From: Escherichia phage vB_EcolP_P433.1
Length of the DNA: 43,865 nt
Reading direction: 5' to 3' (one strand)
Sequence record: MN384978.1
Of the stretch, positions 1 through 43,865 are shown in pieces (the stretch's first letter is position 1; the number at the start of each line of letters is the position of its first letter). The notes beneath the pieces were generated by a model. The model had not been told where the DNA came from. It saw only the letters and a list, made by a program, of their open reading frames with translations, and ran no database searches. Made by a program: the position numbers and the translations under genes.

Positions 1-885
1 TTACTTAGTTAATTCTTCTACTGCCTCAGAGATTAAAGGCCATGCCTCGTGTCCTTCACCGTAACCCAGTTTAACCAGTTCGCGGCGTGCCTTGTTAACT
101 GCTGTTTTCTTCGTTGCCTCTTCAGCGCTCAAACCCAAGCGGGCGTAGAAGCAAGAAGATTTGAACTGCGGAAGCATAGGCGCGGCTGCCTTCTTGCTTT
201 CGCGTGCACTGGTTAGCGCGGCGATGCGGTCATTAGCTGCCTGTAATTGCTCAGTAAGTGCCTTAATCTGTGCCAGTAGGCCAGCCATAGCGGCGTGCTC
301 AGTGTTAGCCGTGTTATCAAGTGGGGCGGCTTTTGGCGCTTCAGGCTTGCTTTCCTCTTCCCAAGGTGCTGATTCGTCGTTGTCCGGCTCGCTCACGGGT
401 GGCACTGCCTGCGGCTCTTGCGTTTCCTGTGATTCTGCGGCATCAGCCGCGTTCTCCTGCGGTTTTACTGTCTCTGCCTTAGATTGTACCATCTCGGCCT
501 TCGGCTCTTTCTTAGGCTCAATCAGGACGTTTACGGCGTTAGTATCCAGCTTGCCACCTGCGGCGAGTTCTGCGGCCTTCTCCATGATAATATCCTCATC
601 AGCGAAAGGAACAAGCGCCAACATTACACGCATCGCCACGCCTTTGAAGCGGTCATCACCCTCAAAGACACGCGCTACGCTCATCAGCTTGTAACATTGT
701 GCCTTCTTGATGCCGAATTCTGATTCTACATAAGCTAAAAAGTCTTTTTGACCTTCAAAGTCACCGCGTAGCTCATTCAGACAAGATCCAACCCGAAGAT
801 AAGAAGTGCCGATATTGTCTAAGTGTTGTTTGATCTCAGCGGTTGCAGCTTCACGAACAGAAACGAGGATGTTTTCAGTAGTCAT
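1..885 (-). CDS. hypothetical early protein (294 aa)
   Basis: Minus-strand ORF whose stop codon is window positions 1-3; ATG at 885 preceded by AGGTGA RBS; acidic and Pro/Glu-rich central region; no recognisable domain. Sits directly upstream of the RNA polymerase if the window is circular. Confidence 0.55.
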   Translation of the reverse strand: MTTENILVSVREAATAEIKQHLDNIGTSYLRVGSCLNELRGDFEGQKDFLAYVESEFGIKKAQCYKLMSVARVFEGDDRFKGVAMRVMLALVPFADEDIIMEKAAELAAGGKLDTNAVNVLIEPKKEPKAEMVQSKAETVKPQENAADAAESQETQEPQAVPPVSEPDNDESAPWEEESKPEAPKAAPLDNTANTEHAAMAGLLAQIKALTEQLQAANDRIAALTSARESKKAAAPMLPQFKSSCFYARLGLSAEEATKKTAVNKARRELVKLGYGEGHEAWPLISEAVEELTK

Positions 886-2359: not shown

Positions 2360-2650
2360 CAATCACTAAGATAAGGCACTAAGGCTTACTAAGGCACACT
2401 ACTAAGTCACTACTAAGGTAAGAACTAAGGCTTTAACTAAGGCAACCCACTAAGGTTAGCATAAGCTATCCCTCAGGTTTATACCAAGGATATACGAGCG
2501 CGGTGAGTGTAGCGTAACGTAGTGTAGCGAAACGAACAGATATCCCACCAACGTCCACCCTGTCAATACCTCATAAACGCCCTGAATGGCCTCAGGAGTG
2601 CACTAAGAGGCTTCACTAAGGCAATCACCTTGTCCATCACTAAGCCAACC
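2360..2650. repeat. array of at least 11 ACTAAG(G) heptamer repeats (CCTTAGT on the coding strand) in two clusters
   Basis: Copies read at about 2365, 2377, 2389, 2402, 2413, 2424, 2438, 2452, 2601, 2616 and 2640 in a non-coding region; resembles the CCTAAAG heptamer arrays next to T7 terminal repeats. Confidence 0.6.
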
Positions 2651-2844
2651 CTAGGCCTTCCTAGGCCGCCTACCGCGTTCCACCTTGCTAGTACATAGGA
2701 AAGCCTGGGCCTGTACCAGTTCACTAGTACACTCCCAAGGCCACCCTATGGGGGACATCCCGGCGAGGGCGAGGGCGAGACACCTCACACACGCCTATAT
2801 CAAAATTTTGACTTTGGTTAATCCTTGTACAACACTAAGGTTTC

Positions 2845-3161: not shown

Positions 3162-4619
3162 TTAGTAAACCAACTTAACCCTGTACGCCACAGCCCTGTT
3201 ACCAGAAGTGCCGACACGAGAAATACGAAGTGTACCCTCAGGGTTTATCTTTGTGCTCACTGGCTCAGCCGCAGTACCATCGATTGATGCAATGGCAACA
3301 ATAGTTGCAGCAGCGAGTGCCTTGGTTCTCAAGCCTACATCGACAAACGTAAGACCATCAGGGATGATAGCAACACCTTCCTGTAAGTCAGGGTGGGTAG
3401 GGCTGTCAACACTTGTTAGCTTACACTGTGGCGTAGTCAGGGTTACGCCTACTACATGAGAGCAGCCACGCAAATGCAGTGAGCTATTCCCCATGTTGCT
3501 AATTAGCATCACGTTATTTGTACGAGTACCCAAGAAGTCACAGTCAGTCGCAGTGATACCCTCCACAGAATCGATAAGGAGATCACCCTGCTGGGCTGAG
3601 TCAATATCATTGAACTGGAATGTTACATTGGTCAGACGCATGTTCTTAGGTGCATTAGCCCCACGCTTAGTGACATACAAACCAAAGTAGCGGCTGTCAG
3701 AGATACAAGTACCATTGATACGCAGGTTGTCACAAGCGCCAACCACTTCGATGCACGCTTCACTGCCAGAGTGGTTTGAAGAGTAGTAACCGAAGTCAAT
3801 CTTCACATCTTTGGCATCCTCCAGATACAGCGCCTGTCCACCTGCAAGGTCACTCATGCAGGAGTTGAACCACGTCCAGCGAGTCCCTATGATCTCAATA
3901 GCCTTACGATTCTTGGCGCTGTTGCCACATGAGTAGACTAGCTCATTTGTGAACATCAAACCCTCTGTGACACTAGAAACACCTGCAGACACGTCTTCAC
4001 TTGCATGGATAGCAGTATAACAATCAGAGTACGTGTTGTTGAAGAAGTGAGAGTTGATCTGTCCACCACCAGAGAATACCGCATAGTTGCTTGCTGCAAA
4101 GCGGTTATTCTGGATAGTAAGCTCAGCTGATGATTTACCTTTCTCACAGAAGACGCACGCATCGTAGAATGCAAACGAGTTGTCGCGCACAGTGATTAGC
4201 GGGCCTTCGATACGGATTGCCATAGTGTTGTTGCTATCCTTTCCGCCACCTACGAAGTTCAGACCTTCGATAACAGTGAATGCCGCACGAGGTATCAGAG
4301 TGGAGCCATTGTGTGTCTTCAATGTTGCACCGTACTTACCATCACTATATAGCCGGATGGCAGATGTAATTATAAGGTCAGTTACAATGTATGGCGTGTC
4401 TTTAGGCGGAACATAGACACCAGCACCCATACCTCCTGCGCGATATGCTGCTTTGATAGCTGCACGGAACGCAGGTGTGTCATCGGTAACACCATCACCC
4501 TTTGCACCAAAATCGGTGACACTAATCTGCTCACTAAGCTTCTCAGGGAGCAGTCTCAGAATAGCTGCATCGTATAGCGCCTTGTATTTCACGAAGGCAG
4601 CACCTAGCTTTTGAATCAT
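3162..4619 (-). CDS. tailspike, probable depolymerase with pectate-lyase-like right-handed beta-helix (485 aa)
   Basis: N-terminal motif ISVTDFGAKGDGVTDDTPAFRAAIKAA typical of beta-helix glycanases; AGGAGGG RBS before the ATG at 4619; position at the genome right end as in SP6/K1-5-type phages. Confidence 0.75.
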   Translation of the reverse strand: MIQKLGAAFVKYKALYDAAILRLLPEKLSEQISVTDFGAKGDGVTDDTPAFRAAIKAAYRAGGMGAGVYVPPKDTPYIVTDLIITSAIRLYSDGKYGATLKTHNGSTLIPRAAFTVIEGLNFVGGGKDSNNTMAIRIEGPLITVRDNSFAFYDACVFCEKGKSSAELTIQNNRFAASNYAVFSGGGQINSHFFNNTYSDCYTAIHASEDVSAGVSSVTEGLMFTNELVYSCGNSAKNRKAIEIIGTRWTWFNSCMSDLAGGQALYLEDAKDVKIDFGYYSSNHSGSEACIEVVGACDNLRINGTCISDSRYFGLYVTKRGANAPKNMRLTNVTFQFNDIDSAQQGDLLIDSVEGITATDCDFLGTRTNNVMLISNMGNSSLHLRGCSHVVGVTLTTPQCKLTSVDSPTHPDLQEGVAIIPDGLTFVDVGLRTKALAAATIVAIASIDGTAAEPVSTKINPEGTLRISRVGTSGNRAVAYRVKLVY

Positions 4620-4703: not shown

Positions 4704-6758
4704 TTATAACCATTCAGGCACAATAACCTCTCCCATTGAGAAGTTTGCTGCCTCACCTTCTCTACTGCACAAACGATACTTCTTATCTACTACTTCCCGT
4801 GTGTCTGTAGAAACTATGTTGTAGCAGATGTTATTAGCTGCTCTATGAACATAAGAATTTACTACTGGCTTACTTCCATCACCTTTTGCACGCGTACCAT
4901 CAATGAAGCAAGATTCTACAAGTAACAGGCCAGCAACTAAGTTGTTGCCTGTATCCCAGTCCAATATAGTCTCATTAAACTCTACACGACCTTGTGCATA
5001 AGTGGTTCCACCAGAGTAGCCTGCAAATCGACGAACGATACCACCTTTATTCTTGATGTAACTACGAGTATTGAAAGTGACAAGGTTCTTGTATTCAATA
5101 TCCATATTACATTCAAAACCTATAATACAACTTGCATATTCGTTACGATAACCTATATAAGCATCAACCTTACAACCTTTAGAGTAAGCAGGTGTAAGTT
5201 TTACAATAGGAACTTCACGAGTTGTTGCATCATGATATGATAGCGCGTATTCATAGCGGGCATTCTTTCCATGGAATACACTCCCTGTGAAGTCTATCAG
5301 TGTAGGCATCACAAAGTCACGCAATATAGGTGACACACTAGTCTTGAAGTTATTCTTGTAAGATACAATATTCAAGGTAACAGCATCAGGCCAGTGGATC
5401 TCTGATTCCACTATAATCTTACGAGGAAGATGCAATGCGCGAGGTTGAACCGGATTACCAGATGATAACACATTATCAGAACGGCACAGAATAAGGTCAA
5501 CAATACCTGTCTTTCCTTCTGGTACTCGTATGCTACCACCTTTGACAATAATGTCACCTTTGTGCTCACCATAATCAGTACGAACACCAAAGGACATAAT
5601 GTTGGAGTTAATGATACGAGTCTGCTCATCGAAGGCACCAGTGCCAACTAAGACACCTTCTTTTACAGTAGAATTATCTACTAGAACTCCAGAGGAGCCG
5701 TAGTGTAAGTGAAAGCTAGGGACAACAGAGTCACGAAGTACCACATCACGGCAGTAGTTACCATCAGCGAAACGCCATCCAGAACCACATGTGCAACCTA
5801 AGAAGGAATGCTTCAATGTATATTCCATAAGGATGGAATAACGAGAGTTATTATCAGGCTGAGGCCCGCCACTCATATTAACATGCCAGTTGACACCATA
5901 TGTATCTCCGCTTGATAATATGCTACGATCAACAGGTACTGAAATGTTACTATCAACCACGCCGTACACATTTACCTTAGAGCGAGTAATGTTGAATGCC
6001 CACTTTGTAACTGCGCCTTTGAACTTAGGAAGCACAACAGTGATGTACGATGCAGGCAACTTATACAAGGTGCAAGTAACACCGCTATTATATGTGTTCT
6101 TGAATGTATAAGCCAGATTACCTGACTTAGTCATCAAGTTAACCTCACATTTCATTCTGGCATCATATCTACCATTAAGGTAGCGATAAAGATCAACCTC
6201 TTGGCTGGTGATCTTAACCAAACTATTATCCCAGCCATCAAGACTTTCTGACACATTAAGTTGATTACTTAACTCTGTCAAAGGGTAGTTAATTACAGTG
6301 AAAGACTTAGACACATCAGTTCGCTCATCTGCCAATGTAACATTGCCACCTGTTAGGTTAAATGTCAAATTACTCAAGTCCATGTCACCATATAGTGTCA
6401 CGTCCTTGTTGATATTAATCTCGGTAGGTACAGAAGCGTAAACCTTGATACCATAACCTCTCAGTTGAGAAAATACCGTATTTAGGCCATCTGCATCTTT
6501 GGTAGGTAAGAGGGTAAGAAGATCAACACCTTTGGATGTGTCAATAATTGAAGTCCACTTACCTTCACCAATACCTTCTGTGAAGGGACTTGAACCGGGA
6601 TTCACAGTATGAGGGTAATCACCAGACCATACATAAATGTCTCTATTAAACAGGAACATATCAGCCATGCCTTGTGCCACACCACCACCCTCAAAGGTGT
6701 TTAATGTTGGTACATTAAGACTGAGTACATTACGTCCTGCACGTGTTAATCCAGCCAT
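4704..6758 (-). CDS. tailspike / receptor-binding protein (about 684 aa)
   Basis: Large Ser/Thr/Asn/Gly-rich ORF; the track start at 6818 is TTG, so the start is placed at the ATG at 6758 with TAGGAG RBS; directly downstream of the phage promoter at 6838-6860. Confidence 0.7.
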   Translation of the reverse strand: MAGLTRAGRNVLSLNVPTLNTFEGGGVAQGMADMFLFNRDIYVWSGDYPHTVNPGSSPFTEGIGEGKWTSIIDTSKGVDLLTLLPTKDADGLNTVFSQLRGYGIKVYASVPTEININKDVTLYGDMDLSNLTFNLTGGNVTLADERTDVSKSFTVINYPLTELSNQLNVSESLDGWDNSLVKITSQEVDLYRYLNGRYDARMKCEVNLMTKSGNLAYTFKNTYNSGVTCTLYKLPASYITVVLPKFKGAVTKWAFNITRSKVNVYGVVDSNISVPVDRSILSSGDTYGVNWHVNMSGGPQPDNNSRYSILMEYTLKHSFLGCTCGSGWRFADGNYCRDVVLRDSVVPSFHLHYGSSGVLVDNSTVKEGVLVGTGAFDEQTRIINSNIMSFGVRTDYGEHKGDIIVKGGSIRVPEGKTGIVDLILCRSDNVLSSGNPVQPRALHLPRKIIVESEIHWPDAVTLNIVSYKNNFKTSVSPILRDFVMPTLIDFTGSVFHGKNARYEYALSYHDATTREVPIVKLTPAYSKGCKVDAYIGYRNEYASCIIGFECNMDIEYKNLVTFNTRSYIKNKGGIVRRFAGYSGGTTYAQGRVEFNETILDWDTGNNLVAGLLLVESCFIDGTRAKGDGSKPVVNSYVHRAANNICYNIVSTDTREVVDKKYRLCSREGEAANFSMGEVIVPEWL

Positions 6759-6837
6759 ATAATCTCCTATTACTTCCCAACCCTCACCATGAAGATTGGC
6801 TAGTAATAGGCCGCTCAAAAGAACGGCACTATCTTAT

Positions 6838-16467: not shown

Positions 16468-16501
16468 GGTACCTCCTAGTTAATGTCATTCATAAAGGCA
16501 T

Positions 16502-16517
16502 GTCTCACATGTGAGAC
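16502..16517. repeat. palindrome GTCTCAC-AT-GTGAGAC (18-bp perfect with flanks)
   Basis: Read directly; lies between the stop of the 981-aa gene and the RBS of the 1267-aa gene, flanked by the conserved GTTATACTCAAGG and CCTTTATGAAT boxes. Confidence 0.6.
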
Positions 16518-16534
16518 AAACCTTGAGTATAACA

Positions 16535-24604: not shown

Positions 24605-24652
24605 TAATAAACCTCCTTATAAATCAAATTGATAATTTAGGGAGACATTTCT

Positions 24653-24675
24653 CCCTTCTATAGTGTCCAGTAAAT
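24653..24675 (-). promoter_or_regulatory. phage RNAP promoter ATTTACTGGACACTATAGAAGGG (capsid promoter)
   Basis: Read as reverse complement; lies between the scaffold and capsid genes. Confidence 0.8.
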
Positions 24676-24680
24676 ACTGA

Positions 24681-32625: not shown

Positions 32626-32675
32626 ATTAAATTCTCCTTTTGTTTGTTATGGCATTATCGCCGATTAAAATTCTT

Positions 32676-32698
32676 CTCTTCTATAGTGTCCAGTAAAT
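32676..32698 (-). promoter_or_regulatory. phage RNAP promoter ATTTACTGGACACTATAGAAGAG
   Basis: Read as reverse complement; preceded 16 bp upstream by the palindrome at 32714-32729. Confidence 0.75.
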
Positions 32699-32713
32699 AC
32701 CGGACACCGATTT

Positions 32714-37190: not shown

Positions 37191-37221
37191 TTGATACCTC
37201 CAATCAATATGATGAAAGGCT

Positions 37222-37237
37222 GTCTCACGTGTGAGAC
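37222..37237. repeat. inverted repeat GTCTCAC-GT-GTGAGAC (18-bp perfect palindrome 37221-37238)
   Basis: Read directly; starts about 10 nt after the stop of the 68-aa gene, preceded by GTCAAGG and followed by GCCTTTCAT. Confidence 0.6.
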
Positions 37238-37247
37238 AACCCTTGAC

Positions 37248-38377: not shown

Positions 38378-38416
38378 AATCAATCTCCAGTTATTTAATG
38401 TACTTAATAAGAGCCT

Positions 38417-38432
38417 GTCTCACGTGTGAGAC
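38417..38432. repeat. inverted repeat GTCTCAC-GT-GTGAGAC with extended arms
   Basis: Read directly; about 20 nt after the primase-helicase stop; the transcript could form a stem of about 11 bp. Confidence 0.6.
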
Positions 38433-38453
38433 AAGCCCTGATAAATACACTAA

Positions 38454-40817: not shown

Positions 40818-40840
40818 CTTATCTATACTGTCCGGTAAAT
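40818..40840 (-). promoter_or_regulatory. phage RNAP promoter variant ATTTACCGGACAGTATAGATAAG
   Basis: G instead of C at -5 and a divergent initiation region; preceded 5 bp upstream by the palindrome at 40846-40861. Confidence 0.55.
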
Positions 40841-40845
40841 ACGAA

Positions 40846-40861
40846 GTCTCACATGTGAGAC
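40846..40861. repeat. inverted repeat GTCTCAC-AT-GTGAGAC
   Basis: Read directly; abuts the upstream edge of the promoter at 40818-40840. Confidence 0.6.
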
Positions 40862-41004
40862 AACCTAGGTCTGCCCTTCCTCTAAGTAGTAATAATAGGA
40901 AGGAAGAAGGTAATAGGTATTCCTAGGTAAACCTATATAACCTTTAATACCTATTATTTCCTTTTATATCCTTATCTTCCCTCCTCTTTCCCATCTCCGA
41001 TGGT

Positions 41005-41027
41005 TTCTCCTATAGTGTCCGGTAAAT
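41005..41027 (-). promoter_or_regulatory. phage RNAP promoter ATTTACCGGACACTATAGGAGAA
   Basis: First phage promoter downstream of the polymerase gene; CCG sub-class. Confidence 0.7.
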
Positions 41028-41031
41028 ATGA

Positions 41032-41119: not shown

Positions 41120-43802
41120 TTATGCAAAGCAATAGTCAGAAACTAAGATCTCTTCAAGGTTAAACTCCCCTTGCTCCGGCACTTGGATACCAGTATCCAC
41201 TAACCAGCGCTCTTCGTGCTCATCTAACAGGCTTTGCAGGGCATTACGTCCTTGGTACATTTTCACCATTTCTGCCCTTAAGCTATCCCGCAGGTCTGCG
41301 GTGCGGCCTGCATGAGTGCCAAAAGAGTCATGAATAACTGCAATGGATGTTATACCTTTATCCACGAGGTCACATACAGTCAGGATAAGGTGGCTAGCAT
41401 CATGACCATGAACAAAATTAGGAGCCGCTGCACCCATCATCGCCGTTTCATCAACTACGTCTGTTTCAATCTGGAGACTCATCTTGATTTCACCCATCAA
41501 GCAAGTTGATACGCGAAGCATATCGGTTGCCATTATCTTTTGTTGCAAGATGAAGCCAGTAGGCAAGGTGTATTCTAACCCTTCATTTCTTTTAGCTGCG
41601 AATCGTGCTAGTTGGCGAATCATTCTCATCGCCACTATAGGTGCTTTAACAACCTCAGAGATTGAAGGCCAGATTAAAGCCGTCATATAATTATAGGCCG
41701 CACCAGTAGTTAAGTAGTCTTTGCGGTCATTATCAAAAGGGTGCACAGGATTCGCCGTCCGCCCTTCTGCAATAGCTCTTTGCGCCTCTTTTTCTTCCAA
41801 ATCAACGATATAATCAATCACAGACTCACGGCAGGTTAAGCGGGTGGAACCATAAGGCAAGGTCATTACGGGCTTTTTGGTTAAGCCACGAGTGATACCT
41901 ATCATATCCCATGCGCTAGCCATGCTACGCAGTTCTGCTCCTGTAAGTGTCACGCTTCCAGAGGTGAAAGTCTCTGCATCATCTGCATTCATGTAAGCGT
42001 AATTCTTCTGGATAACCACTTGCGCCACCGCCCCATAAATATCTTGCGGTGAGTCTGACGGCTTAAGGTTTACCGCCTTAGCGCCTACTTCATCACGTAG
42101 CATCGCACTATAATGCTGAATACCAGAACAACTACCGTCTTGGTGTACTGGTAAGTGCGTCATGAATTGGTCTTGTGTACCTTCATCCAAAGCATCAAGG
42201 TAACGAGCATACTCAAAGCACCACGCAAGGAATCCATAAGGAGAATCAGCATTTACCCATTGAGTAAAAGTCAGCGGGTCGGCTGCAATATCGCGGCACA
42301 TATCTTGAAATTCGCCATCCAGCACATTAGCGGTGCGCACGTCAAAAGTTTTCTTATCCCAACCCCAGTTATTCGCCCCGTTCACCAAAAACCACTTAAG
42401 CGCCTCAGCGCTGTTTATAGTCTGCCCTTCGGTAAACCGTAGTAGCGCCTTGCCTAAGTCATTTGATTGCGGCGAGAGTGTGCTAGATTGCGCGTATACA
42501 CGGCTGCGGCTGTCCAGTGCATATACGAAGTAAATAGCGTTGAAGTGGCTGTATTTACGGGCCTGCCCGACCATGCGAACGGTTGCCGCCGATTTACTGC
42601 CGCGCTTAGTCTCTGCGGTGTACAGCTTGGTGCATTCACCTTTCCAGTTGATAAATGCGTGCCATTGTTCTGGGGTTAGCATTTCTTTTAGTTCACGACC
42701 GCGCAGGTGTTGGAACTCAAGAGGAACAGGATTAGCGGGCTTGTTCTCCCGGTCGATGAGTGGTTTAAAGGAGGGCACACCATAACCAAGATCGAGGCGG
42801 ATAACATCTTCAACAACCTGCAACACTTCCTTATTAACCTGCCACTTGGTCGCCTGCAAAGCGTTAACAGCCTTGTAAACCGCTGGCATTTGCTTTTTGG
42901 TTAGCTTGCGGACGTGCTCGCGGTTGCCTTTAACCAGACGGATACGGCTTGCCACTTTCTCAGTGTGAAAACCTCCATTAAAAGGGGACACCCAAGGGCG
43001 CGGAGGGATAACGCAAGGTGCATAGGCTGGACTAAGCTGCGCTACGTGCTCTTTGAAGGCCGTTATCCACTCCCCAACGTGTTCACTAGTCTGTAAGTAG
43101 TAAACGCCATGTTTGCCGCCGTTAGTGCGCAAGGTGCGGAGGAAAACAGGCTGCCCGTTGAAGAATACACTATTTTCCAAGATTTCTAGCAAGGTCATGC
43201 CTATTTGCAGCAAGGTATCCTTAGGCCATGCCTCCCAGCGGGAGAAATCAGCGTCACGGTCAGATACAGACTTCTCAGCCACAACTGCTACGTTGTGCGC
43301 ATGGCGATAGGATTTAGTCTTGCTTGCCTTAAGTGACTTCTTAACCTTCTCGAAGTATTTGGCGGCGTGACCTTCCAGCTTGCTAAATCGCACTTGGTCT
43401 TCAATGCGGTCAGCTACATTCATGGCTATGGCTTGCAAGGTTACATCTGTGTTCAACATATCCATGACAATCTTCATCGTGATATAGGCTGCCACTTCAT
43501 TTTCTACGCAGTTAATGAAAGCTAATGCACGAGGTGCACGGCCTCTTTTACCTTCATACTCTTCCTTGTATGCCTGAATACCTTCAGCCATTGGCGCGAT
43601 TAACTCGGATAATAAGCGGCGATTCCAAGCCGTATCCGATTCGTTACCGGATGCAATTTGGCGCTGTTGGTCTGCTTCAAAGCGACGAATACCGCCGTTA
43701 AACATTTCTTCTTCAAGCTGAAGCTGGATAGCGTGTAGGTCTAATACCGCCGTTAAACATTTCTTCTTCAAGCTGAAGCTGGATAGCGTGTAGGTCTTGC
43801 AT
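41120..43802 (-). CDS. single-subunit DNA-dependent RNA polymerase, SP6-type; 5' end disrupted by a 55-bp tandem duplication
   Basis: Near-identity over long stretches to SP6 RNA polymerase as remembered (e.g. [49 protein letters not shown]-terminus ...DYCFA). The RBS-preceded ATG at 43802 encodes [20 protein letters not shown] and then frameshifts; the intact frame 41120-43771 begins only at a TTG. Confidence 0.85.
43688..43797. repeat. perfect direct tandem duplication, 2 x 55 bp (43688-43742 and 43743-43797)
   Basis: Both units read AATACCGCCGTTAAACATTTCTTCTTCAAGCTGAAGCTGGATAGCGTGTAGGTCT; the bases flanking each unit differ, so the repeat is exactly 55 bp. Confidence 0.9.
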
Positions 43803-43865
43803 CTTGTTTACTCCTAGTGAAAGAAAACTTAATAGGTGACACCTAAGAAGATGCCACCGATAAGG

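Follow-up and report, generated by a model that had tools for sequence, protein, structure and literature searches.

A perfect 55-nt tandem repeat interrupts the start of the RNA polymerase (RNAP) gene in the deposited genome of Escherichia phage vB_EcolP_P433.1, and we propose that the duplication is very probably not phage DNA, being instead an untrimmed end overlap left by the assembler. The sequence analysed here, referred to as the window, is the complete 43,865-bp GenBank record (proteins QFR58596-QFR58646), in which all large open reading frames (ORFs) lie on the minus strand. P433.1 is a K1-5/SP6-like podovirus and a cultured isolate, placed by the NCBI taxonomy in the Molineuxvirinae, genus Rodentiumvirus, species Rodentiumvirus PP433, alongside CrRp3 and LL11. 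Its name matches that of the therapy phage P433/1 of Smith and Huggins, which has been called highly virulent, the match being by name only (PMC4548693, PMC12846699). The biological weight of the repeat is small because the polymerase gene is most likely intact. The record is, however, the exemplar of the ICTV species Rodentiumvirus PP433, which gives a correction practical value: the stated genome length would be 55 bp too long, and the sequence deposited as a 'complete genome' is in permuted order, with one terminal-repeat copy missing.

The tandem repeat and the polymerase reading frames

As originally predicted, two identical 55-nt units lie head to tail near the end of the window (Table 1). 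Their identity and extent were exact in a direct string test and in Tandem Repeats Finder (43688-43797; period 55, 2.0 copies, 100% matches, no indels, score 220), and a second repeat search (family D6) returned the same two copies. The run of period-55 identity covers exactly 110 nt and is bounded by a mismatch directly outside on either flank, with no partial third copy and no extension past either edge. Read along the minus strand of 43400-43865, the region runs ...TAGGAGTAAACAAGATGCA, then AGACCTACACGCTATCCAGCTTCAGCTTGAAGAAGAAATGTTTAACGGCGGTATT twice, then CGTCGC...; the copies meet at a novel joint between 43742 and 43743, where ...AACGGCGGTATT passes directly into AGACCTACACGC.... Chance is not an issue for a perfect repeat of this kind, which is the sole perfect tandem duplication of period 15-400 in the whole window and sits 68 nt from the record end at 43865. 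Boundary microhomology is common in real tandem duplications, although not obligatory. None was present at the boundaries of the 55-nt duplication, as the period-55 identity breaks off at the first base outside the 110-nt run on either side.

Table 1. Features bearing on the duplication and on the ends of the record, in window coordinates
Feature	Position	Strand	Remarks
Homologue of K1-5 gp6 / SP6 gp7	1..885	-	294 aa, same length as K1-5 gp6; stop codon at bases 1-3
Junction of physical genome ends	2545..2831	-	Terminal repeat (234 bp in K1-5) collapsed to one copy
Long RNAP frame as deposited	41120..43771	-	883 aa from TTG 43771; corresponds to QFR58646.1
55-nt unit, second on the gene strand	43688..43742	-	Identical to the first; putative last 55 nt of the original contig
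Met15-equivalent ATG	43703..43705	-	In the long frame; 7 nt past the TGA of the 29-codon ORF
29-codon ORF created by the frameshift	43713..43802	-	Stop TGA at 43713-43715
55-nt unit, first on the gene strand	43743..43797	-	RNAP codons 2 (part) to 20; putative first 55 nt of the original contig
Authentic RNAP start ATG	43800..43802	-	Aligns with the annotated start in K1-5, K1E, ACG-C91, LL11 and UTI89UKE2
Spacer between gp6-like gene and RNAP	43803..43865	-	63 nt; 62/63 positions invariant in 7 genomes

The duplication shifts the RNAP frame after codon 20. Translation from the authentic ATG, which has a Shine-Dalgarno sequence (AGGAG) upstream at 43811-43815, ends after 29 codons, as had been claimed from the sequence alone. 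An intact frame from this conserved start is absent from the record as deposited and is present only after one copy is deleted. The two internal openings that had been put forward for the long frame were likewise borne out: it opens at TTG 43771 to give 883 aa, with the N-terminus MKKKCLTAV, and the ATG equivalent to Met15 (43705) is in frame. The 883-aa ORF keeps RNAP residues 3-875, and it is this TTG-start ORF that the depositors named 'DNA-directed RNA polymerase' (QFR58646.1, UniRef100_A0AAE6P0A0). We rejected TTG 43771 as the true start, given that no Shine-Dalgarno sequence was found upstream of it, that it falls within the translated 29-codon ORF, and that no relative uses it. The N-terminus of QFR58646.1 is most likely spurious. 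ATG 43705 is preceded by the purine-rich GAAGAAGAA and would be the only plausible reinitiation site, with an 861-aa product starting MFNGGIRRF, if the duplication were real.

Removal of one copy yields an RNAP gene of 2628 nt encoding 875 aa, the length that the original prediction had given for the gene without the duplication. This product is 97.9% identical to the K1-5 RNAP over 875 aa with 0 gaps. In the 90%-identity protein cluster, which has 382 members and is named DNA-directed RNA polymerase, the other members listed are all 875 aa long. The one-copy gene shares its start codon, Shine-Dalgarno sequence and 63-nt upstream spacer with the RNAP genes of SP6 and K1-5, whereas the deposited gene departs from them in losing the frame beyond codon 20 and in its annotated TTG start. 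The true RNAP is most likely an 875-aa protein that is translated from ATG 43802 and starts MQDLHAIQ. Programmed frameshifting was also considered and was rejected, the frame being plain and uninterrupted in the relatives.

A single copy in related phages

Comparison with related genomes had been suggested as a check on the original prediction, and it gave a uniform answer. A 566-nt query from the 5' region of the RNAP gene, run against phage records with BLAST, matched 75 records of K1-5/K1E-like podoviruses at 80-95% identity. All 73 records that span the query do so within 511 nt of their own sequence, 55 nt fewer than the 566 nt of the query, and match it in two BLAST pieces, as expected of a single copy. 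An alignment with K1-5, UTI89UKE2, ACG-C91, K1E, CrRp3 and LL11 places a 55-column insertion in the window and a single copy in each of the six relatives. Conservation across the same seven-genome alignment extends to the ATG, its Shine-Dalgarno sequence and the 63-nt spacer, and the N-terminal 14 residues of RNAP are conserved in 6/6 relatives. Because the DNA differences inside the 55-nt unit among these six are mostly synonymous (ATC/ATT, CAG/CAA), the N-terminal peptide is under purifying selection.

The joint created by the duplication was equally confined to this record. Its 24-mer, AACGGCGGTATTAGACCTACACGC, had 0 exact matches in IMG/VR viral contigs, in JGI metagenome contigs and in 100,044 prokaryotic genomes (GTDB). 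Neither terminal k-mer overlaps nor perfect tandem duplications (period 15-400) were found in the complete records of 6948, LI10P5, Sem1 and CrRp3, and such repeats are therefore not a natural feature of the group. Exact-protein look-ups with the gp6-like protein and with the rebuilt 875-aa RNAP found no independent assembly of the same phage.

Errors of other kinds occur among the relatives. The record ends of CrRp3 (MG775042.2) cut its RNAP gene into 1-2095 and 43754-44320, and only a 189-aa fragment is annotated. In Sem1 (PV717788.1, 20557-23183), RNAP and the primase/helicase are each split in two coding sequences, and both splits are probably due to sequencing errors. A separate look-up with the major capsid protein found an identical protein encoded by Logan contigs from SRR33881050, SRR31323900, SRR33880926 and SRR33881017. 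The DNA of these four contigs is ~89-97% identical to the window in the main aligned blocks, which lie in the structural and replication region. The contigs are closer to P433.1 there than any phage record searched (~84% over the structural half of the window).

The record as a rotated circular assembly

The arrangement of the record itself bears on the origin of the repeat. K1-5 (AY370674) has a genome flanked by exact direct repeats of 234 bp. Bases 1-1231 of that genome, the left end, match window positions 2778-1549, and bases 44099-44370, the right end, match 2831-2556; a repeat search over the whole window found no second long repeat. Since the window thus joins the counterparts of both K1-5 ends across just one copy of the repeat, the record is an assembly that has been circularised and permuted, and an assembly that was circularised must have had an end overlap. 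The ends of the record fall between gp6 and RNAP, away from the physical ends. We therefore rejected the notion that the 55-mer is the terminal repeat of the phage: the terminal repeat measures ~234 bp in K1-5, and the physical ends that it marks are at ~2545-2831, a distance of ~3.2 kb upstream of RNAP.

The position at which the record is cut is just as precise. The stop codon of the gp6-like gene has its last base at position 1 of the window, so that the deposited record begins exactly at the left coordinate of that gene, and the record end at 43865 is equivalent to K1-5 position 3238, immediately past gp6. That the cut coincides with a gene boundary points to a deliberate rotation after assembly. 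Transferring the last 123 nt of the record to its front produces a contig, again of 43,865 nt, that begins and ends with the same 55 nt; at 56 nt the two ends differ. In this re-cut contig no complete gene precedes the gp6-like gene, which lies at offset 124.

The protein encoded by this first gene, QFR58596.1, is named 'endolysin' in GenBank. It has no Pfam match, and every relative examined lists the homologue as a 'hypothetical protein'. The GenBank name is probably an annotation error.

Origin of the duplication

When a path through a de Bruijn graph is cyclic, assemblers of this type output a linear contig with the same k bases at its start and at its end. For metaSPAdes the highest default k is 55, as it is for SPAdes with reads shorter than 150 nt, and the k series used by Shovill is 31, 55, 79, 103 and 127. 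Overlaps of this kind have been documented: one study described a circular contig whose ends overlapped by 55 bp in the assembly graph (PMC8851603), and a phage annotation guide treats circularisation as an assembly artefact and cautions that redundancies may land inside the contig (PMC8785237). Among short-read assemblies of T7-like phages (przondoviruses) made with Shovill/SPAdes, internal repeats of ~79 bp were found in 7/10 genomes; they did not correlate with raised read coverage and were confirmed by Sanger sequencing as artefacts in most of the phages (PMC10438801).

We infer that the P433.1 repeat arose in a comparable way. Observed directly are the layout of the sequence, the presence of only one copy in relatives and the recovery of the gene once a copy is taken out. 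A phage with direct terminal repeats would assemble as a cycle, which an assembler of the SPAdes type would write out linearly with the k = 55 end overlap kept. The contig would have happened to open within the first codons of the RNAP gene, and a person or script would then have rotated it so as to start with its first complete gene, the gp6-like gene, whose left coordinate was 123 nt into the contig. With the 55-nt overlap left untrimmed, the two copies would come to lie head to tail in the RNAP gene, 68 nt from the new end, and annotation software would then have picked the longest ORF, that of 883 aa with a TTG start. One rotation step would thus account at once for a unit of 55 nt, for copies without a mismatch, for flanks into which the identity does not extend, and for the position 68 nt from the end. 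The rotation rule, by which the record starts at the first complete gene, is our reconstruction and corresponds to no documented pipeline step for this record. A search for a paper, or for sibling genomes from the same submitter, that names the assembler returned only one passing taxonomic mention in the literature. The true genome would then consist of 43,810 bp of unique sequence and a second terminal repeat.

The repeat resembles the k-mer end overlaps of circular contigs from SPAdes, metaSPAdes and Shovill in being perfect and of default-k length, in accompanying a collapsed terminal repeat, and in giving identical termini when the record is re-cut. Unlike the usual overlap, which stands at both contig ends, it is internal and 68 nt from one end, which is why an additional rotation has to be invoked. 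The przondovirus repeats offer a parallel in an unexpected short internal repeat in phages of the same order, Autographivirales, but those are of ~79 bp and lie near or within the terminal-repeat region, whereas that of P433.1 is of 55 bp and lies inside RNAP, ~3.2 kb from the physical end (PMC10438801). The original prediction had offered three readings: an artefact, a slippage duplication rescued by reinitiation, and a defective genome. Our results favour the first and disfavour the other two. A unit length equal to a default k, a circular assembly that was rotated, and a repeat 68 nt from the end together turn an artefact that could be into one that very probably is. These three observations do not carry equal weight. 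A real duplication of at least 55 nt would also form a loop in a k = 55 graph and might end a contig there, and the exact length therefore counts for more than closeness to the record end.

A real and recent duplication, in which reinitiation at ATG 43705 supplies an 861-aa RNAP that lacks residues 1-14 and nevertheless sustains growth, appears unlikely to us. P433.1 is an isolate and evidently grows, and two identical copies are what a very recent event would leave, but the length of the unit would then match a default assembler k by coincidence. The arrangement is like that of slippage duplications with translational reinitiation or coupling in that an ATG in the long frame follows 7 nt after the stop of a short upstream ORF; with this ATG just past the TGA and behind GAAGAAGAA, the 861-aa polymerase could be made. 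It is unlike such duplications in having no microhomology at its boundaries and no independent occurrence, neither the second copy nor the joint having been seen in 73 relatives and three large collections, and the truncated protein is only hypothetical here. The 14 residues that would be lost are kept in the six aligned relatives, in which the DNA differences are mostly synonymous, and perfect tandem duplications of at least 15 nt were found neither in four relatives nor elsewhere in the window. The 883-aa form is a less plausible means of rescue: it retains residues 3-875, but its TTG has no Shine-Dalgarno sequence and stands inside the translated 29-codon ORF. If rescue by reinitiation did occur, an SP6-type polymerase without its conserved first 14 residues would still support a full infection cycle, and P433.1 would be a natural experiment on N-terminal truncation of such polymerases and on reinitiation in a phage early gene.

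It is far less probable still that the duplication is real and inactivating, so that the record describes a defective genome or a dominant defective variant that wild-type helper phage carried along in the lysate. Translation from the authentic RNAP start does run out of frame, but an RNAP-null phage of the T7/SP6 type (Autographiviridae) cannot express its middle and late genes, and the window holds at least 11 promoters for the phage RNAP. A cultured, named isolate needs a working RNAP, which makes a defective genome unlikely. Moreover, a consensus assembly represents the majority haplotype, the coincidence with k = 55 would be needed here too, and the name matches, by name only, that of a phage called highly virulent (PMC12846699). 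We assign a similarly slight probability to an artefact of another origin, in which a scaffolder or manual editing placed end to end two graph edges or contigs with a k = 55 overlap, or in which a long-read circularisation overlap was retained. Neighbouring SPAdes edges overlap by exactly k, a naive join would leave the same signature, and the re-cut geometry fits a cycle opened at this point and two edges joined at this point alike. A join of two contigs would, however, leave the 123-nt distance of the joint from the record start unexplained, and a long-read overlap is rarely exactly 55 nt and free of errors. The consequence of such an artefact is the same, in that the duplication is not biological.

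With an untrimmed k-mer overlap as the preferred explanation, the features of this record suggest a simple screen for similar errors, which would flag any record that is cut at a gene boundary and has, a short way inside that end, perfect tandem copies of a unit as long as a default assembler k.

Other features of the genome

Several further features of the window deserve mention. The 63-nt spacer upstream of RNAP is near-invariant though the seven genomes differ by 6-10% elsewhere, and it is predicted to fold into a 10-bp hairpin (GGUGGCAUCU/AGGUGUCACC; dG -18.1 kcal/mol, z -3.5). Like the elements between T7 early genes, this structure may act as an attenuator or as a site of RNase III processing. 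A family of phage-RNAP promoters, ATTTACTGGACACTATAGAAG, occupies 11 minus-strand sites in 6832-41029 (for example 24647-24677, 32670-32700 and 40999-41029). The promoters nearest the RNAP and replication genes (38478, 40812 and 40999) have CCGG in place of CCAG, which suggests two promoter classes. The perfect palindrome TGTCTCAC(G/A)TGTGAGACA is present in four intergenic copies (16492-16526, 37212-37246, 38407-38441 and 40836-40870), which likely form transcript hairpins that serve as terminators or processing sites.

The window also encodes two tailspikes on the minus strand, of 485 aa (3162-4619) and 704 aa (4704-6818), a receptor-binding module that is unusual for the genus. The 485-aa protein carries a pectate-lyase-like domain (Pfam PF12708, E 7e-12). 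For the 704-aa protein, the best match among 50,697 phage records, from the myovirus ECO1230-10, is only 55% identical.
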